This document shows positions 8,183-51,253 of a DNA stretch of 64,000 bases, piece after piece. Position 1 is the stretch's first letter; the number at the start of each line of letters is the position of its first letter. The position numbers were made by a program, and so were the translations under genes. The stretch lies in IMG/VR virus record IMGVR_UViG_3300006149_000007. One strand, written 5' to 3'. The stretch comes from a virus. Under the pieces are notes generated by a model that did no database searches, was not told the DNA's origin, and saw nothing but the letters and a program-made list of their open reading frames with translations.

Positions 8183-8818
8183 ATGACAGAATATACAAAA
8201 ATCGAAACAGTATTTGAACGTGACATGGAAGGGACAAAGAAACTGATTGAGGGCAAGTTCCGTAATGAAACGGTTGAATATCTTAAAGACAACCGTTGGA
8301 TTGGCACAGAAAAGATTGACGGAACAAACATAGGTATTGTTTGGGATGGTCACAAGGTATCGTATCAGGGGAGGACAGAGAGGGCGCAGATACCAGCACA
8401 TCTTACGAATAAGCTGATTGAAATGTTCGGCGGCACAGTCAACGAAGAACTGTTTGAACAGAAATTCGGAGAAATGCAAGTCATTCTGTTTGGCGAGGGT
8501 TACGGTGCGAAAATCCAAAAAGGCGGCGGCAATTACCGTAGTGACATTTCTTTTATCCTTTTTGACGTTTATCTGCCTGAACAGAATTTATGGCTGAAAC
8601 GTGACGCAGTAGAGGACATTGCAAAGACGTTCGGCATTGATGTTGTTCCGATTGTCTACGAGGGCGACATTAAAGGTGCGGTTGAATTTGTAAAGAGCAA
8701 GCCAAAATCTACAATCGGCGTAGCGGATATGGAAGGAATTGTCTGCAAGCCTGCGGTTGATATGCTTGACCGCATGGGGCGTAGGTTGATTGTGAAAATT
8801 AAGGTGTGTGATTTTTAG
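8183..8818 (+). CDS. ATP-dependent RNA/DNA ligase-family nucleotidyltransferase (Rnl-like)
   Basis: Motif I KIDGTN, N-terminus YTKIETVFER, and later FGEGYG plus EGIVCK motifs. Confidence 0.7.
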   Translation: MTEYTKIETVFERDMEGTKKLIEGKFRNETVEYLKDNRWIGTEKIDGTNIGIVWDGHKVSYQGRTERAQIPAHLTNKLIEMFGGTVNEELFEQKFGEMQVILFGEGYGAKIQKGGGNYRSDISFILFDVYLPEQNLWLKRDAVEDIAKTFGIDVVPIVYEGDIKGAVEFVKSKPKSTIGVADMEGIVCKPAVDMLDRMGRRLIVKIKVCDF

Positions 8819-9004: not shown

Positions 9005-9290
9005 GAAACGAATTTTAATCGTGGCGTTGGCAGTTGTGATGGCGGTTTGCTTGGTGGGGTGTGGAACTACATATCAGGAAGCGACAGGACAGACAGAAAG
9101 TAATACAAACGGAAGTTTTTGCAATGGATATTTCACGAAAATAGTAGAATGGGAAGATTCTTATTCGAATTATTATATTGTTTATGCGAATGATACAAAG
9201 GTCAAATACCTTGTCATGTCTGCACAAACAAGGAGTGGAATTACACCGCTTTACAACGCAGACGGAACATTACAACTCTATGAAGATTAA
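8991..9290 (+). CDS. lipoprotein
   Basis: Signal peptide with lipobox LVGCG (ILIVALAVVMAVCLVGCG). Confidence 0.6.
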   Translation: MSRGKKRILIVALAVVMAVCLVGCGTTYQEATGQTESNTNGSFCNGYFTKIVEWEDSYSNYYIVYANDTKVKYLVMSAQTRSGITPLYNADGTLQLYED

Positions 9291-26536: not shown

Positions 26537-27667
26537 ATGGGAAAGGATTTAAGAGGAAAGGAGTTAGGAGTTGGCATTTGCCAAGTAAAAAGTGGCAAAT
26601 ATGTTGCAAGGTTTACGAACCGCAACGGGAAACGCATTAAAAAAGTATTTGATAAGCTGCAAGAGTGCAGACAATGGCTTGCGGATGCACAGTTTGAGGA
26701 TGAACACGGGAATGTATTGCAAGGAGAGAATCCGACAGTGGACGCATGGTATCATTACTGGATTGATAATGTAAAGGGCGATAACATCCGATTTAACACT
26801 CGAAGAAATTATAACGAGCGTTATGACAAGAACATAAAGCCGCTGATTGGGGATATGCTTTTAAAGGATGTAAAGCCGTTGCATTGCCAGAATGTGCTTA
26901 ATCAAATGGCAGATAGATACGCAAATTCAGTCATTGAACATAGTCGCCTGGTTATGTGGATGATGTTTGACAGTGCAGTTGAAAATGAATTGATTGCCAA
27001 AAATCCAGTAACAAAGAGTGTCAAATGCACAAGTGGACGAAAGTCAAAGGAAATGCGGGCATTGACGATTGAAGAACAGAAGTTATTTCTTGAGACCGTT
27101 AATGGGACAAGCAATTACAACCAGTATGCTTTGCTTTTGCAGACGGGGCTACGAACAGGGGAAATGATAGGATTGCGGTGGTCGGATGTGGATTTTGAAA
27201 ATCGGGTATTACATATCCGCCGCACAATGGAGTACCGACACTCTGTAGGAGAATGGAGAATCGGGGAGCCTAAGACAAAGAACAGCGTTAGAGATGTGCC
27301 ATTGACACAAGAGGCGGTTGATATTCTAAAAAACCAGAAAGAAAAGCTAAAAACACTGAAAGTCAGACCGATAGAGTTTAAGGATATCGTTTTCCTCTGC
27401 CGGGATGGTACGCCAACCAAGAATAGTGCGTATGATACAAAGTTATTCTATTATTGCGACAAGGCAGGAATACCGAGGTTTTCCATGCATGTTTTAAGAC
27501 ACACTTTTGCTACCAGGTGCATAGAAGGTGGTATGCGTCCAAAGACATTACAAACAATATTAGGACATTCAAGTATAGGAATTACTATGAACTTGTATGT
27601 TCATGTGACGGATGATGAAAAGGTAAAAGAAGTACAAAATATTGAAAAAATACTTAAAATCATCTAA
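26537..27667 (+). CDS. int: tyrosine site-specific integrase
   Basis: Catalytic Arg in LLLQTGLRTGE, HVLRHTFATR (HxxR), and LGHSSIGITMNLYVH (His and Tyr). Confidence 0.9.
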   Translation: MGKDLRGKELGVGICQVKSGKYVARFTNRNGKRIKKVFDKLQECRQWLADAQFEDEHGNVLQGENPTVDAWYHYWIDNVKGDNIRFNTRRNYNERYDKNIKPLIGDMLLKDVKPLHCQNVLNQMADRYANSVIEHSRLVMWMMFDSAVENELIAKNPVTKSVKCTSGRKSKEMRALTIEEQKLFLETVNGTSNYNQYALLLQTGLRTGEMIGLRWSDVDFENRVLHIRRTMEYRHSVGEWRIGEPKTKNSVRDVPLTQEAVDILKNQKEKLKTLKVRPIEFKDIVFLCRDGTPTKNSAYDTKLFYYCDKAGIPRFSMHVLRHTFATRCIEGGMRPKTLQTILGHSSIGITMNLYVHVTDDEKVKEVQNIEKILKII

Positions 27668-29258: not shown

Positions 29259-30083
29259 CTATTTGTGTACTTTTTCCGTAAAGGCTCTTTCAACAGACCA
29301 TCCTTTTCTTAATCGGTTATGGAGAACATCCCAACTCATATCAAGAATGTCAGACCATTCTTTTAATGTTTTGGTTTCTCCATGATATTCAATCAAAAGA
29401 TTGCTTGATTTGTTTATGGATTGTTCTGCTTGAGTAGCCCACCGACAGTTAGATGGTTCATAGTTACCGTCATTGTCGATACGGTCAATGGTATATCCGT
29501 CAGGACGACCGCCTATGCCTTCAGACCATTTTGCAAAACTCCAAAAATCGTGCCATTCCTTACATACGGTTATTCCACGATTTCCATAAAGGTAATACTT
29601 TGGGTGATTTGGATTCTCACAACGACCAATCATATTTTTCCAAAGACCGTAAAGCGGATGTAGCGTTCTGCCGTCTATATATGCTGGACTGTTTTTCAGC
29701 AAGCAACCGCAACTTTTTAACTTTCCGTTTTTGAATTGGTACGGAAGAATGCGAATAGTGTTTCCACATTCGCAAAGGCAGTCAATATACTGCCGTTTAT
29801 CGCTTGGTTTTCTTTCTGAAAAACCTATGGCAGTAAGTAGATAAGACTTTTTGCCTATGAAATCTTCAATTTTAACTTTTATAGGCTGTTTGTTTGAAAA
29901 AGAACAATTACCGCAAGACTTTTGAAGACCTCTTATTACTCTATCAGGAGCATAAGAAACGATTTTACCGCAATCGCATTGAAAATCAAAAGCATTTGGA
30001 ATGTCTGAATTTTCAGACTGCTTAACAACAGTGAGATAACCATACCGTTTTCCGGTATAGTCAGAAATATGGTATTTGAGCAT
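29259..30083 (-). CDS. zinc-ribbon-repeat HNH-like homing-endonuclease-type protein (paralog 1)
   Basis: Two G.R.G.L.V...C.CGN....SCG modules, then YGNRGITVCKEW...IDRIDNDGNYEPSNCRWATQAEQSINK. Confidence 0.55.
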   Translation of the reverse strand: MLKYHISDYTGKRYGYLTVVKQSENSDIPNAFDFQCDCGKIVSYAPDRVIRGLQKSCGNCSFSNKQPIKVKIEDFIGKKSYLLTAIGFSERKPSDKRQYIDCLCECGNTIRILPYQFKNGKLKSCGCLLKNSPAYIDGRTLHPLYGLWKNMIGRCENPNHPKYYLYGNRGITVCKEWHDFWSFAKWSEGIGGRPDGYTIDRIDNDGNYEPSNCRWATQAEQSINKSSNLLIEYHGETKTLKEWSDILDMSWDVLHNRLRKGWSVERAFTEKVHK

Positions 30084-34594: not shown

Positions 34595-35455
34595 ATGGCA
34601 AAAGCTATTGACTTAACAGGGCAGAAGTTTGGCAGATTAACTGTTGTTTCAAGGGCAGAAAACAGAAACGGAAAAATAATATGGCATTGTAAATGCGACT
34701 GTGGAAATGAAAAAGATGTTATATATGATAATCTAAAACGAGGAAGAACGCAAAGTTGTGGCTGTGTGCAAAAAGAGATAGCAAGTAATTTATGCAAAAA
34801 TTTATCGAAAACACAAAGACCATATGAGGATTTGACTGGAAGAAGATTTGGGAAACTTATTGTTGTTAAAAGAAATAAAAATATAAAATCAAATCACATT
34901 CATTGGGATTGCAAATGCGATTGCGGGAATATAACTACCGTTTCAGCTACACATCTTAGAAGCGGTCATACAAAATCGTGTGGTTGCTATCGTATCGATT
35001 TTGAGCCAGAAGTTAAAAAACATGGTATGTCTGACACGAGGCTTTATAAGATTTGGCAAGGAATGAAAGGTAGGTGTTGTAGAGCTTCAGAGCCTACTTA
35101 TAAATGGTATGGCGGCAGAGGGATAGTGGTATGTGAAGAATGGCTACATAACTTTCAAGCGTTCTACGATTGGGCTATTTCTAATGGATATGCCGATAAT
35201 TTGACAATCGAGAGAAAAGATGTGAATGGCGATTATTGCCCCGAAAACTGTTGTTGGATACCATTAAAGAAACAGGCTCAAAACACAAGGGCAACTAGGT
35301 TTTTGACTTATAACGGAGAGCGCAAGTCCTTAACTGAATGGTCTGAAATTACGGGCATAAAAAGCGGAACTTTGCACGGAAGGCTTGAAAGAGGATGGTC
35401 TGATGAAAAGTGCATAGAAACCCCAGTGAATAAGAAATATAGGAACAAAAATTGA
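34595..35455 (+). CDS. zinc-ribbon-repeat HNH-like protein (paralog 2)
   Basis: GQKFGRLTVV..WHCKCDCGN..SCGC occurs twice, then YGGRGIVVCEEW...IERKDVNGDYCPENCCWIPLKKQAQN. Confidence 0.55.
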   Translation: MAKAIDLTGQKFGRLTVVSRAENRNGKIIWHCKCDCGNEKDVIYDNLKRGRTQSCGCVQKEIASNLCKNLSKTQRPYEDLTGRRFGKLIVVKRNKNIKSNHIHWDCKCDCGNITTVSATHLRSGHTKSCGCYRIDFEPEVKKHGMSDTRLYKIWQGMKGRCCRASEPTYKWYGGRGIVVCEEWLHNFQAFYDWAISNGYADNLTIERKDVNGDYCPENCCWIPLKKQAQNTRATRFLTYNGERKSLTEWSEITGIKSGTLHGRLERGWSDEKCIETPVNKKYRNKN

Positions 35456-39161: not shown

Positions 39162-39872
39162 ATGGCATATATAAGAGCAAAGGACCGGATTGGCACAATG
39201 GTTAATGGGTTTTATATACAGGACATAAAAAGAGAGAATAATAAAACGTTTGCATATATAAAGTGTCCTTATTGCAAAAAGCAAAAATGGACAAGACTGG
39301 ATGATGTTGCAGCCGGAAAAGTTGTATCTTGTGGTTGCTATAACGCAGAAAATAACTACAAGAAACCTATAGATATAAAAGACAAGATTTTTAATTATCT
39401 AAAAGCATTGGAGCCAACGAAAGACAGGGATAAGTCCAACGGCTCTATTATTTGGAAATGCAAGTGTAAGTGTGGAAATATTGTTTTTATTTCCGCAGCA
39501 GACTTGGTAGAAAAAAGAGTACAGAGTTGCGGATGTCTTGCTGTGGAAGTACATTCTAAAAGCGGGAAAATTGCAGGAAAAAGTGTTGTGGAAAACTTTT
39601 GTGTAGAAGGCACAAATATTAAAAATTTAACTGCAAAAATCTCAAAAAATAATACATCTGGAATAAAAGGTGTAACATGGGATAAAGCGCGGCGAAAATG
39701 GCTCGCACAAATCGAATTTAAAGGGAAAAATTACAACCTTGGTCGATTCGATAAAAAAGAAGACGCTGCGGAGATAAGAAAAATAGCAGAAGAAAATTTG
39801 TTCGGAGATTTTTTACAATGGTTCGCAGAAAGTTTTCCGGAACGCTGGAATAAAATAAATAAAAATAATTAA
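39162..39872 (+). CDS. zinc-ribbon-repeat protein with a C-terminal AP2 DNA-binding domain (paralog 3)
   Basis: Two C.C..C..SCGC modules, then SGIKGVTWDKARRKWLAQIEFKGKNYNLGRFDKKEDAAEIRKIAEE (AP2). Confidence 0.65.
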   Translation: MAYIRAKDRIGTMVNGFYIQDIKRENNKTFAYIKCPYCKKQKWTRLDDVAAGKVVSCGCYNAENNYKKPIDIKDKIFNYLKALEPTKDRDKSNGSIIWKCKCKCGNIVFISAADLVEKRVQSCGCLAVEVHSKSGKIAGKSVVENFCVEGTNIKNLTAKISKNNTSGIKGVTWDKARRKWLAQIEFKGKNYNLGRFDKKEDAAEIRKIAEENLFGDFLQWFAESFPERWNKINKNN

Positions 39873-40258: not shown

Positions 40259-40316
40259 TTAAATAATTTAACAGATTTACTTAATTTTTAGGATGGAATT
40301 GTAGAGGGAAACTTGG

Positions 40317-40367
40317 AACCCGGATTGTCTAGTCGCTTACTAGGCTTTCCGGGTTATTTTTATTTTT
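40317..40367 (+). terminator. strong rho-independent terminator 8-20 nt upstream of the terS-like start
   Basis: AACCCGGA..(CTAGT..ACTAG)..TCCGGGTT followed by ATTTTTATTTTT. Confidence 0.7.
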
Positions 40368-40389
40368 AGGCAGATTGGAGGTGTGGGAC

Positions 40390-41019
40390 GTGGAGAAAGT
40401 GCAGGAACAGAAGCAAGAGGTATTTGAAAACGATATAGCGTTATATCTCAAAATGTTTTGTGAGGAACAGAAGATTGAGGATATGCGGACGGCTTCACAA
40501 AGCGTCTGGAATGCCGCGTTGATGTATATCAAACGCCATGTATTTAGTGATAGTAGTATATTAAAGCTATCTACACCTTTAGAGGGTTATGTAAATAATA
40601 ATTATACTACAGATAATAATATATATAAATTAAATAACAGTAACTGTAATGCTTATGATATAGATAAGCTAAATGGTATCTGTGATTATTATATATATAT
40701 CTGCATGATGTATGATAAAGAGGTATCTGTTATAGGGTTTAGTAATTTGACTGGTGTGAGTGATACTGTAATATACGAGTGGGGAGCAGATGACAGCAGA
40801 AAGCTAAGCTCTGCGGGTTCGGCTATATACAAAAAACTTAACCAATACCGGGAGGAAAGCCTATCAAACAAACTCGTAACGGGTAGGCAAAACCCTGTGG
40901 GCGTGTTGGGTGTGCTGAATCGGCATTATGCCTGGAATATGCCGGGCGTTAGGGAGGATAAGAACAGTAAGAGGGTTATATCTGCCGAAGAGCCTATCAG
41001 ATTGGATGTTAGAGATTAA
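40390..41019 (+). CDS. terminase small subunit-like (gp3/HTH-type) DNA-binding protein
   Basis: GTG lies 6 nt after GGAGGTG; an alternative TTG is at 40375. IGFSNLTGVSDTVIYEWG...ESLSNKLVTGRQNPVGVLGVLNRHYAW resembles the DNA-packaging gp3 family. Confidence 0.45.
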   Translation: MEKVQEQKQEVFENDIALYLKMFCEEQKIEDMRTASQSVWNAALMYIKRHVFSDSSILKLSTPLEGYVNNNYTTDNNIYKLNNSNCNAYDIDKLNGICDYYIYICMMYDKEVSVIGFSNLTGVSDTVIYEWGADDSRKLSSAGSAIYKKLNQYREESLSNKLVTGRQNPVGVLGVLNRHYAWNMPGVREDKNSKRVISAEEPIRLDVRD

Positions 41020-41390
41020 TAATTAAATTGCAACAAATAAATTGTGTAAAAATTTAATACAATTATCTCAGTGCAAAGCCTTAAAATCATTTAAATTTTT
41101 TACACACAATTATATACAATTTAAAAACCGCATAAAATCAACGTTTTTAATAAATAAAAGCTATTTATTTATCGGTTAAGGATTGATTTAACCGATAGAA
41201 TAGCTTAATTGTCAGAATATTCATAAAAATAGAAACAATAGGGTGGGGGTTATATAGAACACGTGTTCTATATATACTTAGTCCCTTGAACTCCCGTAAA
41301 AATAAAAAACCCCTTTATATACTAGTCTTAAAAATTTTTTAAAAATAAAAAGGCTATATATATTATATATTTCATACATAATTAGAACTA

Positions 41391-41615
41391 GTGACGGTTT
41401 TTCTTCGGATGGCAGACAGGTGCATTTGTCAGTAAAGACATACAAAATCCTATGCAGTCCTCATAAACATAAATTGGACGGTGGATAGTTGATGTAGTGG
41501 GCCAACGCAGGATTAACAGTCATCTTCGCGAGTGTACGGTTCGAATTCGTGCCTATCTATGCGGTGTAGTAGCACTACACTAGACAGGAGTAAGGCGGTC
41601 ACTGCCCTGTCGAAT
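41391..41615 (+). ncRNA. candidate structured RNA containing a tRNA-like module (class unknown)
   Basis: A GC-richer island in an AT-rich spacer. T-arm TACGG-TTCGAAT-TCGTG, acceptor-like GGATAG/CTATCT pairing and D-loop AGTGGGCCA (41483-41558). Hairpins GTGTAGT-agc-ACTACAC and GACAGG..CCTGTC. No anticodon stem. Confidence 0.4.
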
Positions 41616-41686
41616 CAAAAATAATGCTGGCAGGAACATTCTTTCTGCCAGATAAACCGCAAAATGAAGTTAGGAGGGATTTTGAT

Positions 41687-41881
41687 ATGAAATGTTGTAG
41701 ATGTGGCGATAGTCCAGAAAGTGGAAAAAGTTTTATTCCGATTGATGCGGCAGGAGCGCCGAACAGAAGATGGTGCTGCACGCAGTGTGCTAATTTGGTT
41801 GAAAGACAGCAAGCGAAAAACGCACTCGGAAAAGAGGGAATGGAAATATCAAGAATGATTGACTCTAAATTTTTGAAATAA
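41687..41881 (+). CDS. small zinc-ribbon protein
   Basis: ATG lies 8 nt after TAGGAGGG. MKCCRCGD...WCCTQC. Confidence 0.5.
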   Translation: MKCCRCGDSPESGKSFIPIDAAGAPNRRWCCTQCANLVERQQAKNALGKEGMEISRMIDSKFLK

Positions 41882-41991
41882 CCTCATAAAAGCCATTTTA
41901 ACGCTGTACCATATATTTCCTCACAAAAACACAAAAGAGGACGATTTGGGGCAAATAGGAGTGTTAGGGAGGTATTGAAAGGAGAAATTAC

Positions 41992-42564
41992 ATGAAGAAA
42001 ATTCCAACACTGTTTGAAAGAGTATATGAAAATCACAAAGTCGTTGACTGTCTGCCGAATGTAACCACAGGAATGGAATGGGTACTTGAGGGAGAGGGCG
42101 TTGCAACGGTCAAAATTGACGGTTCGTGCTGCTCAATCATCAATGGCGAGTTTTATAAGCGTTATGATGCTAAAAAGGGGCGTAAAGTTCCAGATGGTGC
42201 TATTAAGTGTCAAGATGAACCAGACCCGATTACGGGGCATCTGCCTTGTTGGGTAAAATGTGACAGGGATAACCCGTCTGATAAGTGGTTTTGGGCGGCT
42301 TATGATTGCGCAATGATTGATTGTTTGAGCAAATTACAAGACGGAACATATGAAGCTATTGGAAAGCATTTTCGCAACAATTCCTACAACATGGATTATG
42401 ATGTGCTTGTACCACATGGCAGACAGGAAGTAGAGGTTGAACGTACATTTGAGGGCATAAAGAAGTATCTTTCAGAAAATTACATTGAAGGCATTGTTTT
42501 CTGGAAAGATGGACAACCTCAATGCAAGATAAAGAGGTCGGATTTTAGATTTGACTGGAAATAG
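41992..42564 (+). CDS. ATP-dependent RNA/DNA ligase-family protein (second copy; resembles the RLIG1/DUF5565 type)
   Basis: KIPTLFER N-terminus and motif I KIDGSC. IEGIVFWK lies near the C-terminus. Confidence 0.65.
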   Translation: MKKIPTLFERVYENHKVVDCLPNVTTGMEWVLEGEGVATVKIDGSCCSIINGEFYKRYDAKKGRKVPDGAIKCQDEPDPITGHLPCWVKCDRDNPSDKWFWAAYDCAMIDCLSKLQDGTYEAIGKHFRNNSYNMDYDVLVPHGRQEVEVERTFEGIKKYLSENYIEGIVFWKDGQPQCKIKRSDFRFDWK

Positions 42565-42570
42565 TTTCAA

Positions 42571-42642
42571 GGCGATATAGCCAAACGGTCAAGGCGGCAG
42601 TCTGCAAAACTGCTATTATCAGTTCGATTCTGATTATCGCCT
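42571..42642 (+). tRNA. tRNA-Cys (anticodon GCA)
   Basis: Acceptor GGCGATA/TATCGCC. Anticodon arm GCAGT-CTGCAAA-ACTGC. T-arm ATCAG-TTCGATT-CTGAT. D-loop has GG. The discriminator is U, as expected for Cys. No CCA is encoded. Confidence 0.9.
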
Positions 42643-42747
42643 TTATAACGGACTAGACAAAGCTAGTCGAAAAGCAAAAAACTCCGTAACTTGCCTGTCC
42701 GTTATTCAAATAAATTTACGGAGAGAAAGCATTGCGGAGGTGCGAAT

Positions 42748-43782
42748 ATGGATTTTAGAAGCTTATTTATAGACAAAGATAAAATTGTAATGGCAAATAT
42801 GGAACTGGGAGTTGCACTCAACAGCCTTGACGAAGCAATAGTGCTTAATCAGTTAAATTACTGGATTGAACGCAATAAAGACGCAAATAGGAATTTCCGA
42901 GACGGTCATTACTGGGTATATAATTCATACGAAGCGTGGAAAAAACAAGATTTCCCTGTTTGGTCTGCAACAAAGATTAAACGGATATTTACAAGCCTTG
43001 AGGGGAAGGGGATTGTTTTATCTGCAAATTACAATAAACTTGCCATTGATAAAACAAAGTGGTACACGATTGATTATGACAAATTAAAAAAGTTTATTGA
43101 AGAATACTCGAAAGGTCAAAATGAAACACCGACAGACCAAGATGAAATATCGAAAGACGCTGATGACCAACCGATAGACCAAAATGACCAGACGTTAGAC
43201 CAAAGTGAAAGAGCATTACCAGATACTAACTACAGAGATTATTCTACAGAGAATACTAACAGAGATTTACATACAGATACTACAAAGGATAAAACATTAT
43301 CTAACGATAATGGAGAGGTAAAAACATCTTCTTCTGAAAACCGAAAGAAGATGTCCGTACCAAAAACCGCCTTAGAAAAATATTTCGGCAAAAAAGCAGA
43401 TGAACAGGACATGATGAAGCGGCTTGCCGATATCTGCATATCCAACTATGACGAGGAAACCGCAAAAGATATATTTGAAACCATAGAGCATTATTTTAGG
43501 CGATATACTGACAAGACGGGGCTGATACACCCAATACTGAAAGATGAAACTCTTATACGCATAACAGAGAAAATGGATTGCTTTTATGATAGCGAATATT
43601 CACATTTTGAACGCCTGATAGGACAAGACCATGCTTTTATGAAAATGGTTGACATGTTCTTTGACGGAGATTTTGGGGCGGTTAAGGGAAACGAAACGAA
43701 TTATCATCTCCCTGCATTTATGACAGACGGAGTTTTGAATCGATTAGGGCAAAGGTTGTTTGAGTTAGGGGAGGTAGAGTGA
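42748..43782 (+). CDS. second replication initiator / replisome-organizer-like wHTH protein
   Basis: ATG follows GCGGAGGTG. LNQLNYWIERN...HYWVYNSYEAWKKQDFPVWSATKIKRIFTSLEGKGIV. The gene contains internal DQ-coding iterons. Confidence 0.55.
   Translation: MDFRSLFIDKDKIVMANMELGVALNSLDEAIVLNQLNYWIERNKDANRNFRDGHYWVYNSYEAWKKQDFPVWSATKIKRIFTSLEGKGIVLSANYNKLAIDKTKWYTIDYDKLKKFIEEYSKGQNETPTDQDEISKDADDQPIDQNDQTLDQSERALPDTNYRDYSTENTNRDLHTDTTKDKTLSNDNGEVKTSSSENRKKMSVPKTALEKYFGKKADEQDMMKRLADICISNYDEETAKDIFETIEHYFRRYTDKTGLIHPILKDETLIRITEKMDCFYDSEYSHFERLIGQDHAFMKMVDMFFDGDFGAVKGNETNYHLPAFMTDGVLNRLGQRLFELGEVE
43131..43205 (+). repeat. Iteron-like (T/C)AGACCAA(A/G) / TGACCA repeats inside the second initiator gene
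   Basis: cAGACCAAg, aTGACCAAc, TAGACCAAA, aTGACCAGa, TAGACCAAA. Confidence 0.55.
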
Positions 43783-43783
43783 T

Positions 43784-44308
43784 ATGGCTTACAGAAGTCC
43801 AGAAGAACAAGTAAGTAAAAAATTACGAGAAAAGATTTTGAAAAGGGATAATTACACTTGCAAATATTGTAGGAAGAAATTTCCTGCTGAAGATTTACAG
43901 ATAGACCATATCAGACCTGTTTGTTTAGGCGGCGATAACAGAGAAAGCAACTTAACAACTGCTTGCTGGAAGTGTAATAACGAAAAGGGAACAAATTTAA
44001 TGCCGGAATTAGAAACGGAAGAAAACAAGAGAGATTTTGACGAGAGATACAGACAAAAAGTAAAAAATTATGGATATTATACGAATTACATCAAGAAAGT
44101 ATTTGTTTCAAGCGGTGTGGACTGCCTTATGTTGTCAAGACCGCAAATTAATAGATATGTTAAAGCAAATATAAAAAACGATGAAGATTTTGAAAATTTC
44201 AAAATAAAGTTGAAAGAAATCGGAGCAGGTGGAATGAAAAAGGAATTTCTTAGATTTTTTGCAAGCGAGAGCAGAAAAAGGCTGAATAGTAGGAAAAAAT
44301 CGGTATAG
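43784..44308 (+). CDS. HNH endonuclease
   Basis: CKYCRKKF...DHIRPVCLGGDNRESNLTTACWKCNNEKG. Confidence 0.8.
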   Translation: MAYRSPEEQVSKKLREKILKRDNYTCKYCRKKFPAEDLQIDHIRPVCLGGDNRESNLTTACWKCNNEKGTNLMPELETEENKRDFDERYRQKVKNYGYYTNYIKKVFVSSGVDCLMLSRPQINRYVKANIKNDEDFENFKIKLKEIGAGGMKKEFLRFFASESRKRLNSRKKSV

Positions 44309-46390: not shown

Positions 46391-46419
46391 TTAAGTTGGA
46401 AGAAAGGAGGACTGCGCTT

Positions 46420-48201
46420 TTGTCTTTAGAACTTCAAAAAGCCATATCTGGCTATGAATCCTATATTGAGAAAAAAGGTTATACATACGAAGTGGCAAAT
46501 GCCTACCATAATGCCGTGTTCTTTGCATCCGAAAAGGATAACGATTTGCAAGAAGCATTAAAAATATCTATCAGGGCGAAAGAAGTATTAAATCAATTCT
46601 GCGTAAATCAGTATAAAGGCGACATATGGGAGCTTGAAAAATTCTGTTTTGCCAACAAGACAGGGCATGAAATGGTGGATAAGTGGTATGAGATATTGAA
46701 GTTGGAAGCTCCGTATAAGTTTGAGAGTTTTATTTACTACATGGAGAAAAACAGACCGTATGCAAAGCGGTTTTATCTTCCGAGAAGAAATCCTATGAAA
46801 ATAGTTGTCAGTGACCTACAGGATTTAGAGGATAGGACAAGTGGTAAAAAATTCTATGGTTTATCCATGCCAAGCCGTGTTGGAAAGTCCACTGACTGTA
46901 TATTTTTTCTTTCGTGGATAGCCTTAAAACGCCCAAACAGTCACTCTGCTATGGGTGGACACTCTGGAATACTTGCGAAAGGATTTTACAAGGAACTGAT
47001 GAACCTAATCGCAACGCCAGAGTACACATTTAAAGAATTATTCGATTATCTGCACCCAGAATATCAAAATAGACCATTTCTGACAGATAAGAGTGCGGAC
47101 GAATTTACAATCACATTGGGAGACTCAGACCGATTCGCAACAATCACTTGCCGAGGAATTGATGGAACATGGACGGGGGCTATTGACGTATCAGAGGACG
47201 GTTATCTGTATGTGGACGACCTTGTAAGGGACAGGCAGCATTCATTAAGTCCCCGAAGAATGGAAGAAACCTATCAAGAGTACCTAAACAAGATGGTTGA
47301 CCGTAAAAATGATGGGGCAAGGGAGCTTATGGTAGGTACTCTATGGAATGTATTAGACCCGTTGGAACGAATAAGAAAAGAGGAAAAAGACAATCCAAAG
47401 TATGGATTTAGAAAAATTCCTGCCTTAAATGAGAAAGATAAAAGTAATTTTGCTTATGAGATAAACGGATTTTCCACAAAATATTATCACGAAATGAGGG
47501 ATAGGCTCGATAAAGCAGAGTGGATGGCTAAATTCATGCAGCAGCCGTTTGTAAGAGAGGGATTATTATTCCCGACAGATGAATTACAATTTTTTAACGG
47601 AATATTGCCAGACGGAGATTTTCGGATTGTTGCGGTAGTTGACGTAGCCTGGGGCGGCGGCGACAGCTTATCAATGCCAATCGGTGCAGAATATGAAAGT
47701 GGAGACGTATATGTGTTTGCATGGGTATTTAACAAAGGGGCAAAAGAAGTCACATTACCACTTGTGACAGGGCAAATCATAAACAACCGCATAAGACAGA
47801 TACGGTTTGAGGGAAACACGGGCGGAGATTTGTACTGCAAATATGTTGATGAAATGTTGCAAAAGCAAGGGTGGAAATGTAGCTGCACACACAGAAAAGC
47901 ACCTAACACTATGGAGAAAATGTCCAAAATTATAGCATATTCGGGAGATATAAAGAGAAAGTATCATTTTCTGACTTCAAAGATACCAACGCAAAAAGAA
48001 CGAGAGAGGGATAATGAGTTAGGCATTGTTCGGTATGTCAGAGATAAAGAATATCAAGATGCTATGGACGAACTGGAAACCTTTGTAACGATAGGAAAAA
48101 ACGACCACGAAGACGCAGCAGACGGATTAACACAGCTTGAAATGTTTATAGAAAATCCGGGCGGAATAAGGCAAACAATCATAATGCCAAGCCCAATCTA
48201 A
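46420..48201 (+). CDS. terL: terminase large subunit
   Basis: TTG lies 9 nt after AGGAGG; the track start is 46396. Walker A-like SMPSRVGKST, Walker B YLYVDDLV, C-terminal nuclease VVDVAWGGGD...EDAADG. Confidence 0.8.
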   Translation: MSLELQKAISGYESYIEKKGYTYEVANAYHNAVFFASEKDNDLQEALKISIRAKEVLNQFCVNQYKGDIWELEKFCFANKTGHEMVDKWYEILKLEAPYKFESFIYYMEKNRPYAKRFYLPRRNPMKIVVSDLQDLEDRTSGKKFYGLSMPSRVGKSTDCIFFLSWIALKRPNSHSAMGGHSGILAKGFYKELMNLIATPEYTFKELFDYLHPEYQNRPFLTDKSADEFTITLGDSDRFATITCRGIDGTWTGAIDVSEDGYLYVDDLVRDRQHSLSPRRMEETYQEYLNKMVDRKNDGARELMVGTLWNVLDPLERIRKEEKDNPKYGFRKIPALNEKDKSNFAYEINGFSTKYYHEMRDRLDKAEWMAKFMQQPFVREGLLFPTDELQFFNGILPDGDFRIVAVVDVAWGGGDSLSMPIGAEYESGDVYVFAWVFNKGAKEVTLPLVTGQIINNRIRQIRFEGNTGGDLYCKYVDEMLQKQGWKCSCTHRKAPNTMEKMSKIIAYSGDIKRKYHFLTSKIPTQKERERDNELGIVRYVRDKEYQDAMDELETFVTIGKNDHEDAADGLTQLEMFIENPGGIRQTIIMPSPI

Positions 48202-49696: not shown

Positions 49697-51253
49697 ATGC
49701 AGTATGGCAGAAAAATTTTATATACAGATGAGCCGGAAATCACATACGAAAACATCATTGGCGTTGTTCAAAAAGTAATTTCCGACCACGAAAGCAACGC
49801 AAGCGAAATTGACCGCCTAATTCGTTATGACGCAGGGGAGCAGGAAAAAACACGCATTAAAACATACCGTAGCGATATTGACAACTGGTGCGTGGATAAC
49901 TTAGCAAATGAAGCGGTAGAATTTTGGCTTGGTTATTTATGGTCTAACCCTATGACACTTGTACAGACAGATGAACTTGAAGAATCAAGGAAAGGTGTAA
50001 TTGCAGGAATATCAGCACTGAACAGGTGTTATCGGGCAGAGAAAATAAAAAAGAAAAATCAGAAGTTAGGGCGTTTTGTTGAAATCGGAGCATTGGGATA
50101 TACTCATGTTTCCACAAACGAAGAATGGCAAGAGGGAGATAGCTACTTCAAATTAGAAGCATTAGACCCTAGAACAGCCTTTGTTATTCGGTCAAGTTAC
50201 TATATAGACCAACGTGTCATGCTTGGTGTGACATTTAGAAAAGACGACCAAGGAAACAGATTTTTTACTTGCTATAGTAAAGATAGACGGTTTGAGATTA
50301 AAAACCTAATAGAAATCGTAAATGGAGAAAAAACAGGAAAAATCATATGGGGACATGACTTGCGAAGCGGAGAAGAAAACCCATTGCATATAGTGCCTAT
50401 AGTGGAATGGATAAGAAGTTATGACCGTATGGGATTGTTTGAACGCCAAAAGCCGGAAATGGATAACTTAAATCTTCTTATTTCTGACTTTACAAATGAT
50501 GTCGACCAAAATACACAGGCAATGTGGCACTCGAATGATGTAGAATTTCCGACAGAGAAGATTAAATTATCTGACGGAACAGAAAAAGAAGTTGCAGTTA
50601 AACCAAAATCGGGCGAGTGGTTGCAGACATTCACGCCACAGGACGGTAAAACACCGATTGTTGAGGCACTGGCTATTAACTACGACTATCCCGGAATGCT
50701 ACAAAACATTATTACAAGGCGAGCATTGATTTTGCAAAAGATGAATGTTCCACAGAGAAACGACAACAGCGGAGGCAGTACAGGAGTTGCGATGTCAGAC
50801 GCTACCGGTTGGAGTGCGGCTGAAATGGCGGCAAGCAAACAGCAAAACATTATGGAAGATTGCAAAATGGAGGAAGTAAAGGTTGTATTGGCGGCAATAA
50901 AAAATTCAAGTTTTATAAAGCCAGACAATCCGCTTTTGAAACTTACCATATCCGATATTCAAGCAAACACAAACAGACAAAAGACCTATGAACTTACCGT
51001 AAAAACAAATGCCATGTGTACTTTGCTTGCAAAAGGTTTTGACCTTGACGATGTTTTGACGATTGCGCCGCTATTCTCTGACCCAAACCAAGTGTCAGTA
51101 AGAAGTGGGGCAGGGGTAAGGAGATACCAAGAGGCAAATATATTTAATACCGCAACACAAACAGAAAAAACAGAAAAAAAACGACCATTCCCTGATTATT
51201 CAGACCAAGAGAGCAATTCGCCAAACATTGGAGGAATGGAAATAGAAAATTAG
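49697..51253 (+). CDS. portal protein (SPP1 gp6-type)
   Basis: 518 aa. Position after terL. N-terminus ILYTDEPEITYENI...IDRLIRYDAGEQ is typical of this portal family. Confidence 0.8.
   Translation: MQYGRKILYTDEPEITYENIIGVVQKVISDHESNASEIDRLIRYDAGEQEKTRIKTYRSDIDNWCVDNLANEAVEFWLGYLWSNPMTLVQTDELEESRKGVIAGISALNRCYRAEKIKKKNQKLGRFVEIGALGYTHVSTNEEWQEGDSYFKLEALDPRTAFVIRSSYYIDQRVMLGVTFRKDDQGNRFFTCYSKDRRFEIKNLIEIVNGEKTGKIIWGHDLRSGEENPLHIVPIVEWIRSYDRMGLFERQKPEMDNLNLLISDFTNDVDQNTQAMWHSNDVEFPTEKIKLSDGTEKEVAVKPKSGEWLQTFTPQDGKTPIVEALAINYDYPGMLQNIITRRALILQKMNVPQRNDNSGGSTGVAMSDATGWSAAEMAASKQQNIMEDCKMEEVKVVLAAIKNSSFIKPDNPLLKLTISDIQANTNRQKTYELTVKTNAMCTLLAKGFDLDDVLTIAPLFSDPNQVSVRSGAGVRRYQEANIFNTATQTEKTEKKRPFPDYSDQESNSPNIGGMEIEN

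Follow-up and report, generated by a model that had tools for sequence, protein, structure and literature searches.

Two covarying RNA structures probably frame a variable tRNA slot in a gut phage genome

Introduction

What does a phage keep in 667 nt that carry no gene? The question is raised by positions 41,020 to 41,686 of the virus record IMGVR_UViG_3300006149_000007 (IMG/VR), of which a stretch of 64,000 nucleotides was analysed (hereafter, the window). The 667-nt gap lies between a gp3-like gene, which ends at 41019, and a zinc-ribbon open reading frame (ORF), which begins at 41687, and consists of an AT-rich half followed by a GC-richer island. An earlier note, made from the sequence alone, had seen no credible ORF here, and we agree: only ORFs of 30-55 aa with TTG or GTG starts overlap the gap, and independent gene calls on identical contigs show the same gap (L161 5334-6000; L numbers denote the fetched loci). 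That note had also described a tRNA-like module and two perfect hairpins in the island, and had suggested several known classes of structured RNA, a tRNA-derived att remnant, or an origin or packaging (pac) region as explanations.

Here we describe the island as three consecutive elements:

41426-41481, + strand: conserved leader ('up'), a hairpin and an H-type pseudoknot
41482-41560, + strand: degenerate tRNA-like module with an acceptor stem, a D-loop GG, a poor anticodon arm and a T-arm; no CCA encoded
41561-41664, + strand: post-tRNA three-hairpin motif R1, 104 nt, defined by a covariance model, covariation and register

The tRNA slot in related phages

Relatives of the window phage were fetched through the 214-aa gp3-like protein encoded upstream. 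In the closest syntenic relatives (L081-L083), whose upstream protein is 60% identical, positions 41423-41483 and 41559-41685 are kept at 89-92% nucleotide identity, while the 76 nt between these conserved pieces, exactly the module, are replaced by ~715 nt. The insert holds tRNA-Glu and three T-arm-bearing modules, one with a weak tRNA-Sec match and one (in L081) with a weak mascRNA match (25.8 bits, E 0.01). More distant relatives carry tRNA arrays at the slot, in which the first tRNA is tRNA-Gln and the last mostly tRNA-Met. Because the flanks are kept while the module is swapped, we regard the island as a conserved frame around variable tRNA cargo. As a description, a conserved RNA frame around a tRNA slot, with degenerate tRNA-like cargo in the window, is very probably correct, and the slot appears to belong to a family of Lachnospiraceae/Blautia phages in which it would be transcribed from the + strand.

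Leader and R1 co-occur, at distances of 2, 49, 79 (the window), 83, 95, 140, 184, 448 and 719 nt. The shortest distance marks an empty slot, found in ~21 loci, in which the leader is fused straight to a short R1 variant. A scan for the pseudoknot pattern yielded further IMG/VR contigs, in which the 5' strand of a tRNA or tRNA-like element starts 0-5 nt after the pseudoknot or, in L219, R1 follows directly. Filled slots contain either tRNAs or non-canonical tRNA-like modules. Good tRNAs upstream of R1 include tRNA-Tyr in L097 and L136 and those of L176 and L186, which reach 46.7 and 42.6 bits with Rfam; the non-canonical modules have UGCAAAU T-loops, are without an anticodon arm, or are acceptor/T-arm minihelices of 45-50 nt. 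CCA is encoded by none of the tRNAs or tRNA-like modules that precede R1 copies.

Some of this cargo is unusual in its own right. Armless minihelices, in which a 7-bp acceptor stem is joined to a T-arm by a short linker and which sometimes stand two or three in tandem, occur in L081 (9330-9376), L039 (~120-234), L170 (~9180-9283), L178 and L088 (7775-7823); that of L081 is the module with the weak mascRNA match, and several have the unusual UGCAAAU T-loop. The module of L211 has a D-arm and a T-arm and no anticodon arm. A tRNA-like gene of L246 (6974-7112), which ARAGORN does not call, has good acceptor, D and T arms with an insertion of ~60 nt in the anticodon region, and may be an intron-containing tRNA.

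The leader pseudoknot

The leader begins with a small, invariant hairpin (41427-41430 / 41437-41440, UGUC/GACA). This is followed by an H-type pseudoknot with stems S1 (41450-41454 / 41462-41466) and S2 (41457-41460 / 41476-41479) and a conserved A-rich loop, ACAUAAAUU. In window-type relatives S1 reads CUAUG/CAUAG and S2 reads GUCC/GGAC; the window itself has CAUAA as the 3' strand of S1, which leaves one mismatch (C41450/A41466). Elsewhere S1 is changed to CUGCA/UGCAG or CCGCA/UGCGG, and S2 to GCCC/GGGC, GCCA/UGGC or ACCC/GGGU. In an alignment of 25 sequences that was not fitted to the structure, 93.5% of the cells are paired, compared with 21-46% when the strands are slid, and double changes occur in 7 of the 9 pseudoknot pairs, so that both stems covary. 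As this covariation comes from few independent lineages, it is good but not overwhelming. The leader was also considered as a sigma-70 promoter, which we rejected: it has no legally spaced -35/-10 pair, and its two stems covary as a pseudoknot.

The post-tRNA motif R1

R1 opens with a 4-nt spacer, after which hairpin A (41564-41569 / 41575-41580) is followed by CUAG and hairpin B. The latter pairs 41583-41588 and 41590-41592 with 41603-41605 and 41606-41611, leaving a bulged A, and its loop, with the conserved element GCGGUCAC, holds GCGGU at 41595-41599. In the window, CGAAUCAAAAAUAA lies between hairpins B and C (hairpin C, 41627-41636 / 41642-41651) and the tail reads AUAAACCGCAAAA; the family layout after hairpin B is CGAA-N3-AAAAUAA, hairpin C with a loop that can hold 52 nt or more, and (AU)AAACCGCAAAA. 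Short variants do without hairpin C. The hairpins GTGTAGT/ACTACAC and GACAGG/CCTGTC of the earlier note are real and conserved, and correspond to helices A and B of R1. What it had missed is that they are part of a 104-nt covarying motif and that a covarying pseudoknot stands directly before the module; its end of the island, 41615, was set too early, as the larger motif runs on to 41664.

Homologues of R1 were collected by a scan for the exact pattern CTAGACAGGA-N6-CGGTCACT, a sample biased to conserved cores, and chance matches were excluded (L179, L184, L187, L212, L220 and L221, plus 14 of the 18 stretches of one scan). Copies were found in IMG/VR, in metagenomes and, among genomes, in three Lachnospiraceae/Blautia metagenome-assembled genomes. 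A covariance model built from six sequences scores 126 bits with the window; 20 further distinct sequences (21 in total) reach 32-126 bits, and weaker, shorter versions (15-24 bits) were seen in ~27 further loci inside tRNA arrays. R1 is single-copy in the window, where a search for further copies found none. In L246 only the 3' half of R1 is present (8767-8816; hairpin C and AUAAACCGCAAAA), where it overlaps the last part of a DUF2828/VWA gene and precedes a 74-aa ORF. Since L246 keeps only this half, recombination breakpoints evidently fall inside the frame.

Relatives conserve the pairings of the island, which the earlier note had named as a point to check. In the model-fitted alignment of the 21 sequences, 96.4% of the cells in R1 helices are paired, compared with 30-40% after sliding by 1-3 columns; both sides are changed in 19 of 30 pairs, and none of 500 shuffles reaches the observed covariation score. 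When the sequences were aligned with MAFFT, unfitted to the model, RNAalifold still drew all of hairpins A and B, with several double-change pairs in either, and 4 of the 10 pairs of hairpin C. Compensatory replacements are found in hairpin A (GUGUAG/CUACAC to GUUAGG/CCUAAC or GUCGGU/ACCGAC), hairpin B (GACAGG/CCUGUC to GGUGAG/CUCACC) and hairpin C (CUGGCAGGAA/UUUCUGCCAG to CUGAUAGGGG/CCCCUGUCGG). Within the helices, 42 cells are G.U and 5 are A.C. Because G.U far exceeds A.C, R1 is to be read as a + strand RNA and not as a DNA palindrome, and the same tolerance of G.U counts against reading the hairpins of the island as DNA structures, a rival that bears mainly on the AT-rich half and is weighed there.

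R1 also keeps a fixed register to the tRNA ends. In 18 of 21 copies the start of the R1 model lies 8-9 nt past the end of a T-arm, defined by a 5-bp stem and a loop KKCRANN, compared with a background of 0.6% in the same loci; these nucleotides are accounted for by the 3' strand of the acceptor, the discriminator and one base, the first, of the 4-nt spacer, which is mostly UGNG. On the other side, a Shine-Dalgarno sequence and a start codon follow within 0-25 nt in 14 of the 21 copies, and the downstream genes, where compared, differ among copies. At the remaining copies more RNA-like sequence follows, including the int-alpA RNA (RF02996) in L034 and L039.

Could R1 be a ribozyme? R1, alone or with the leader pseudoknot, might cleave itself and thereby trim the 3' trailer of the preceding tRNA or tRNA-like element, as an analogue of the theta ribozymes, which resemble that of hepatitis delta virus (HDV), with another structural class. 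That R1 stands in fixed register to tRNA 3' ends, that many of its unpaired nucleotides are strictly conserved and that loop and tail may form a pseudoknot would all suit such a function, as would the Pistol, Hammerhead_II and RAGATH-27 RNAs in the same neighbourhoods of relatives and the theta ribozymes that occupy the same position in other gut phages, where RNA ligases are enriched. However, R1 matches no Rfam ribozyme family at E<=10, the 4-nt spacer in which cleavage would have to occur is not conserved, and the short variants dispense with hairpin C. We consider this explanation distinctly improbable.

Individual ribozyme classes fared no better. HDV-like and hammerhead folds were suggested by GCGGU...ACCGC and an adjacent GAAAC. 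The HDV-like fold was rejected by inspection of the alignment, as only 3-6 nt separate GCGGU from the 3' strand of hairpin B, so that no P3/L3 can form after the candidate P2 strand, and as the nucleotides joining hairpin C to the tail are AUAA or AA and offer no catalytic C of J4/2; no Rfam HDV model matches either. Hammerhead, pistol, twister and hatchet folds were likewise discarded, with no Rfam match at E<=10 and no CUGANGA box by inspection. A pairing between GCGG in the 4-nt spacer and CCGC in the tail, taken from the minimum-free-energy fold of a single sequence, holds in one subgroup only and was dropped.

Preceding a gene as it often does, R1 could instead belong to that gene. On this account R1 and/or the leader pseudoknot would be cis-regulators through which a protein or a small ligand acts on translation or stability of the downstream ORF, and the adjacency of a tRNA would be incidental. 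The Shine-Dalgarno sequence that R1 abuts in two thirds of its copies (14 of 21), its conserved loops and linkers, and the retention of both elements in empty-slot variants are in keeping with this. So is the leader pseudoknot, which is small, H-type and A-rich in its loop and shares its topology with the preQ1-I and SAM-II aptamers. Yet the downstream ORFs are mutually unrelated, unlike those of riboswitch regulons, 7 of the 21 copies have no ORF after them, the exact 8-9-nt register to the T-arm is not what an incidental neighbour would show, and no riboswitch family of Rfam matches at E<=10. We therefore hold cis-regulation to be unlikely.

The known RNA classes that the earlier note had named as candidates or for checking (Y_RNA, ROOL, GOLLD, HEARO and tmRNA) give no match at the gathering threshold over the whole window nor at E<=10 over 40900-42800, and for tmRNA the dedicated ARAGORN search was negative too. 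As the Rfam 15 scans are empty, ROOL, GOLLD, HEARO, Y RNA and tmRNA are excluded as far as these models reach. Over the window, Rfam 15 finds only tRNA-Cys and int-alpA; within 41020-41686, at E<=10, only chance matches of the small nucleolar RNA type appear. Thus, of the earlier interpretation, a tRNA-like module within a conserved structured phage RNA beside an RNA ligase and a tRNA stands, while the specific candidates fall. Leader and R1 are absent from Rfam 15; a catalogue of ~10,000 unnamed candidate viral structured RNAs (PMC10690425) may include them.

The tRNA-like module

The T-arm with a TTCGAAT loop, the acceptor stem and the D-loop GG that had been noted are all readable in the sequence. 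The acceptor stem (41482-41488 / 41553-41559) has the full 7 bp, one of them G.T, and the T-arm (41535-41551) reads TACGG-TTCGAAT-TCGTG, with the expected 5-bp stem and loop, a G53.U61 pair and an extra G-C pair. The remainder is poorer than in a tRNA: the D-stem forms 2-3 of 4 pairs, beneath a D-loop that carries GG, and the anticodon stem 3 of 5 standard pairs, beneath the loop TTAACAG; the variable region has 9 nt. ARAGORN calls no tRNA at the module with its default or -ps settings, and only at the 80% threshold (-ps80) does it report 41482-41560, as a tRNA-Val(aac) whose anticodon stem is poor. The Rfam tRNA model (RF00005, gathering 29 bits) does not match the module at E<=10 in either a 1.9-kb or a 121-nt scan. 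When searched among all fetched loci, the module returned only itself and showed no similarity to any tRNA, and a scan of IMG/VR for the exact T-arm pattern gave no match.

Is it nevertheless a functional decoding tRNA-Val (AAC), with ordinary spacers on both sides? In the cloverleaf drawn at the 80% threshold, position 33 is indeed U and position 37 a purine; the T-loop is canonical, as is the D-loop GG, and relatives carry the well-scoring slot tRNAs of L176 and L186 mentioned above. Against this stand the silence of default ARAGORN and Rfam, the incomplete anticodon stem, the G53.U61 pair and the extra T-stem pair; to our knowledge, moreover, a Val anticodon with A34 is not used in bacteria. 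The flanks are not mere spacers, because they covary as RNA structures. A decoding tRNA is thus highly improbable, and the window module is almost certainly a decayed, non-decoding tRNA-like element that retains the acceptor/T-arm half and the D-loop GG.

The AT-rich half

Upstream of the island, an inverted-repeat search recovered all three palindromic elements that had been described in the AT-rich half, the third of which lies inside a conserved element, e75:

41043-41064 / 41085-41106, no strand assigned: imperfect inverted repeat in AT-rich DNA just past the stop of the gp3-like gene
41158-41206, no strand assigned: interrupted 17-bp hairpin, AAGCTAT..TATCGGTTAA / TTAACCGATA..ATAGCTT
41241-41323, + strand: e75 cis element of ~80 nt, comprising a G-run (GGGTGGGGGTT), a variable spacer of ~25 nt and TACTTAGTCCC..AAAAATAAAAA
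41338-41366, + strand: candidate sigma-70-type promoter TTTAAA-17-TATTAT, in the A/T-rich stretch after e75

The first of these folds only weakly better than shuffles (z = -2.1, equalled by 11 of 300) and its sequence is not conserved among relatives; it may be an operator-like site. The second has a perfect 10-bp core (41170-41179 / 41188-41197) in addition to the outer AAGCTAT/ATAGCTT, and folds at -21.4 kcal/mol (z = -5.7, with none of 300 shuffles as good). On the + strand it lacks a U-run; on the - strand it is followed by a U-rich one. A terminator scan did not flag it. The same scan found no intrinsic terminator in 41020-41686; hairpin C of R1 is followed by AUAAACCGCAAAA, with no U-run.

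The perfect 24-bp palindrome at 41251-41274 (segment fold z = -4.2, 1 of 300 shuffles as good) forms the spacer of e75 in the window, and L176 has a related AACATATGTT palindrome core within the same spacer. The family-wide parts of e75 are the G-run, the variable spacer of ~25 nt, CTACTTAGYCCC and AAAAATAAAAA. The element is conserved ~140-220 nt downstream of the gp3-like gene in ~150 fetched loci, and the closest relatives have a diverged form of it. It is single-copy in the window, where a search for further e75 cores or palindrome cores found none. Its position and conservation would suit the promoter or a regulator site of a late operon, or else a site of packaging or replication, and the palindrome inside it looks operator-like. 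The A/T-rich stretch that follows e75 is conserved in L240 and L246 as well, and may hold the promoter of the island transcript near 41338-41366, where the candidate has 9 of 12 matches. Overall, the AT-rich half (41020-41390) is a probable separate regulatory intergenic unit, made up of a unique family-conserved element and a probable promoter.

These features also bear on the rival reading of the region, and especially of the AT-rich half with its palindromes and e75, as a DNA site (a replication origin, a pac/cos site or an att remnant). That e75 is unique per genome and conserved in nucleotides where the neighbouring protein is only ~50% identical agrees with such a site, and so do its position after a gene with a weak match to the gp3 small terminase (PF16677, E 0.0011), a DnaD-like replication gene 1.7 kb downstream and palindromes that are significant against shuffles. 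A repeat search, on the other hand, found no iterons, and a cos site would be misplaced, as e75, with the HNH and large-terminase genes 2.5-5 kb further downstream, is not beside the terminase genes as usual. An att remnant is unlikely as well: both acceptor strands are kept, the integrase is 14 kb away, the module is unlike any tRNA in the fetched loci, and relatives hold whole tRNAs in the slot. For the island the preponderance of G.U over A.C is consistent with single-stranded + strand RNA. The origin/pac idea of the earlier note therefore survives only for the AT-rich half and not for the island, and as an account of the region as a whole a DNA site seems to us rather improbable.

Contig ends were considered as evidence that e75 is a virion end, which was rejected, as the ends cluster ~8-12 kb upstream of the gp3-like gene. 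In the window the integrase lies ~13-14 kb upstream of that gene; because the clustered ends may be prophage ends, they are uninformative on a cos site.

The relatives nearest in their gp3-like protein (83-93% identity) have Bro-N/ANT antirepressor, TnpB/IS605-type or resolvase genes downstream instead (L237 3447-4577; L243 5317-6570; L240 4879-5472; L246 4194-5348). Judged by gene content, close relatives have an insertion hot spot after the gp3-like gene. Among the relatives fetched at 83-95% protein identity only L246 has the leader, and they yield no variation for the module.

Gene neighbourhood

All large ORFs of the window are carried by the + strand, each after a strong Shine-Dalgarno sequence. 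Those relevant here, with nearby RNAs, are:

26537-27667: integrase
40375-41019: gp3-like gene, 214 aa, with the weak PF16677 match given above
41672-41678, + strand: Shine-Dalgarno sequence AGGAGGG, preceding the zinc-ribbon ORF
41687-41881, + strand: zinc-ribbon ORF, 64 aa, the first gene after R1
41992-42564, + strand: RNA ligase, RLIG1-like, 190 aa (phrog_14301, E 8.7e-55)
42570-42643, + strand: tRNA-Cys, 67.5 bits
42646-42721, + strand: int-alpA RNA (RF02996), 40.1 bits against a gathering threshold of 35.8
42691-43782: DnaD-like replication protein
46396-48201: large terminase
49697-51253: portal protein

The zinc-ribbon gene, RNA ligase and tRNA-Cys are thus the neighbours that had been described. 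The window sequence is also found on an 86.6-kb gut-metagenome contig of the Joint Genome Institute and on seven other contigs, and the region is 100% identical in all of them. When 40300-42700 was compared with the GenBank phage collection at the nucleotide level, no similar phage DNA appeared; by its terminase the nearest cultured phage is Clostridium phage Maintenon (39% identity). A Cys-rich ORF similar to the zinc-ribbon ORF follows the R1 copy of L188.

The ligase matches PF17720 at E 1.4e-4, under the curated cut-off, and the PDB entry 9c6l ('RNA ligase1') at E 8.5e-11. Homologues with 54-75% identity occur in many gut phage contigs of 40-150 kb (L001-L080), with otherwise unrelated neighbours, and because these loci are not syntenic we regard the RLIG1-like ligase as a mobile gene. 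Several of them have R1 variants and e75 ~1.3-4 kb upstream, the R1 variants of a few loci lying at 1.3-3.8 kb.

The int-alpA RNA starts 2 nt past tRNA-Cys and ends ~27 nt ahead of the DnaD-like ORF, so that tRNA-Cys, int-alpA and the DnaD-like ORF repeat, in the same operon, the order of module, R1 and zinc-ribbon ORF. Elsewhere int-alpA stands ~5 nt after a tRNA (L081, L186) or after R1 (L034, L039), and in L176 it is ~350 nt from the nearest tRNA. These positions suggest that int-alpA is generally a post-tRNA, pre-ORF element; the main text of Weinberg et al. 2017 (PMC5737381) does not discuss it.

Other mobile and catalytic elements were noted nearby. Four HNH-endonuclease genes lie in a 15-kb part of the window (29259-30083 on the - strand, 34595-35455, 39162-39872 and 43784-44308), two of them close paralogues of phrog_374 and one with an AP2-like DNA-binding domain; this density suggests active homing-type mobility in the phage. 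RAGATH-27, Pistol and type II hammerhead (Hammerhead_II) RNAs occur within a few kb of the slot in relatives (L172 6448-6531; L176 6880-6963; L186 5971-6054, - strand; L081 3491-3556, - strand; L136 3092-3159, - strand), and none of them in the window.

Discussion

What might such a frame do? We suggest a mechanism of RNA processing and end protection, which we regard as possible, though somewhat short of probable. The island would be transcribed from the A/T-rich promoter near 41338-41366, and RNase P would cut at the 5' end of the tRNA-like module. In Firmicutes, CCA-less tRNA precursors are processed via RNase Z; because no CCA is encoded here, the second cut would be made by RNase Z after the discriminator of the module. 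The leader pseudoknot would then act as a cap that shields the leader, at its new 3' end, from 3'-5' exonucleases, while R1, with hairpin A only 4 nt from the new 5' end, would cap the downstream mRNA against 5'-3' decay of the RNase J type and also present the ribosome-binding site of the zinc-ribbon / RNA-ligase / tRNA-Cys operon.

Several observations weigh against this mechanism. The module folds no more stably than its shuffles do (z = +0.24), and its G53.U61 pair and 6-bp T-stem are atypical; as the fold is ordinary and the T-stem unusual, recognition by RNase P and RNase Z has to be assumed. The identical contigs L161-L168 yield no variation by which the window module could be judged, and the promoter scan as a whole performs at chance level. 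Empty-slot variants retain both flanks with no tRNA between them, which requires that the flanks serve a function independent of excision, and one third of the R1 copies (7/21) have no following ORF. The unpaired nucleotides of R1 (CUAG, GCGGUCAC, CGAA, AAAAUAA and AAACCGC) are conserved more strongly than plain end protection by a hairpin would require, which suggests catalysis or a specific partner. Finally, GCGGU (41595-41599) and ACCGC (41656-41660) form a candidate pseudoknot within R1; as the pairing is almost invariant, covariation speaks neither for nor against it. Since empty slots exist and the unpaired nucleotides are conserved, both the ribozyme and the protein- or ligand-regulator explanations keep some weight.

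Returning to processing and end protection, a bolder version is quite doubtful but worth stating. Leader, module and R1 together might form an undescribed phage RNA-processing unit, in which the module is an excised punctuation mark (cut by host RNase P and RNase Z, or by R1 as a new ribozyme class), the flanks are exonuclease-blocking caps and the whole is a counterpart of MALAT1/mascRNA; the RLIG1-type ligase might act on the resulting 3'-OH and 5'-phosphate ends.

Phage tRNA arrays are usually read as lists of genes. Here they are seen to occupy a fixed frame of two covarying RNA structures, which persists whether the slot is empty or is filled by real tRNAs or by armless or decayed look-alikes. 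If the frame directs processing or end protection, this would explain why gut phages retain tRNA-like modules that do not decode, and would also assign a role to int-alpA and the post-tRNA motifs of its class. For the annotation of gut viromes, two searchable motifs are gained.

Compared with canonical tRNAs, the module shares the acceptor stem, the TTCGAAT T-arm, the D-loop GG and the slot occupied by the arrays of relatives, but it fails default ARAGORN and RF00005 and its anticodon arm is degenerate. The leaders of ermC, aprE and SP82 are 5'-terminal stabiliser stem-loops of Firmicute and phage mRNAs, and R1 resembles them in placing a stable hairpin within ~4 nt of a predicted 5' end, upstream of a strong Shine-Dalgarno sequence. 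It differs in being more elaborate and more conserved in sequence, and in that its 5' end would come from tRNA processing rather than initiation. In the eukaryotic nuclear long noncoding RNAs MALAT1 and MEN-beta, the 3' end is formed by a triple helix followed by the tRNA-like mascRNA. The likeness lies in a compact structure with an A-rich strand directly upstream of a tRNA-like element that RNase P would cleave, and in the weak mascRNA match of L081; the window, in contrast, has a 30-nt H-type pseudoknot in a phage, and cleavage and protection there are predicted.

Within the same phages (the window, L081 and L186), int-alpA, like R1, lies a few nt after a tRNA and before an ORF, and the two share a layout of C-UAG, hairpin, CGAA, A-rich linker and hairpin. 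Nevertheless, the RF02996 model (35.8 bits) does not match R1 at E<=10, so that no homology is detectable by covariance model, and the structures differ: int-alpA has a closing stem formed from its two ends and a U-rich tail, whereas R1 has a local 5' hairpin, the GCGGU loop and the AAACCGC tail.

The theta ribozymes, which are minimal and HDV-like, abut the 3' ends of CCA-less phage tRNAs in gut phages, and an RNA-ligase gene family is enriched 140-fold in the phages that carry them (PMC10879173). That family is DRB0094 (PMC10879173), whereas the window ligase is RLIG1-like. R1 does not have the nested double pseudoknot of theta ribozymes, it has a 4-nt spacer and a local 5' hairpin, and self-cleavage would be putative. 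The resemblance is that R1, too, is a structured RNA at the 3' ends of CCA-less tRNAs, with a ligase encoded two genes downstream, and if the proposed mechanism is true, the frame would be a second structural solution, beside theta ribozymes, for the maturation of phage tRNA transcripts in Lachnospiraceae.

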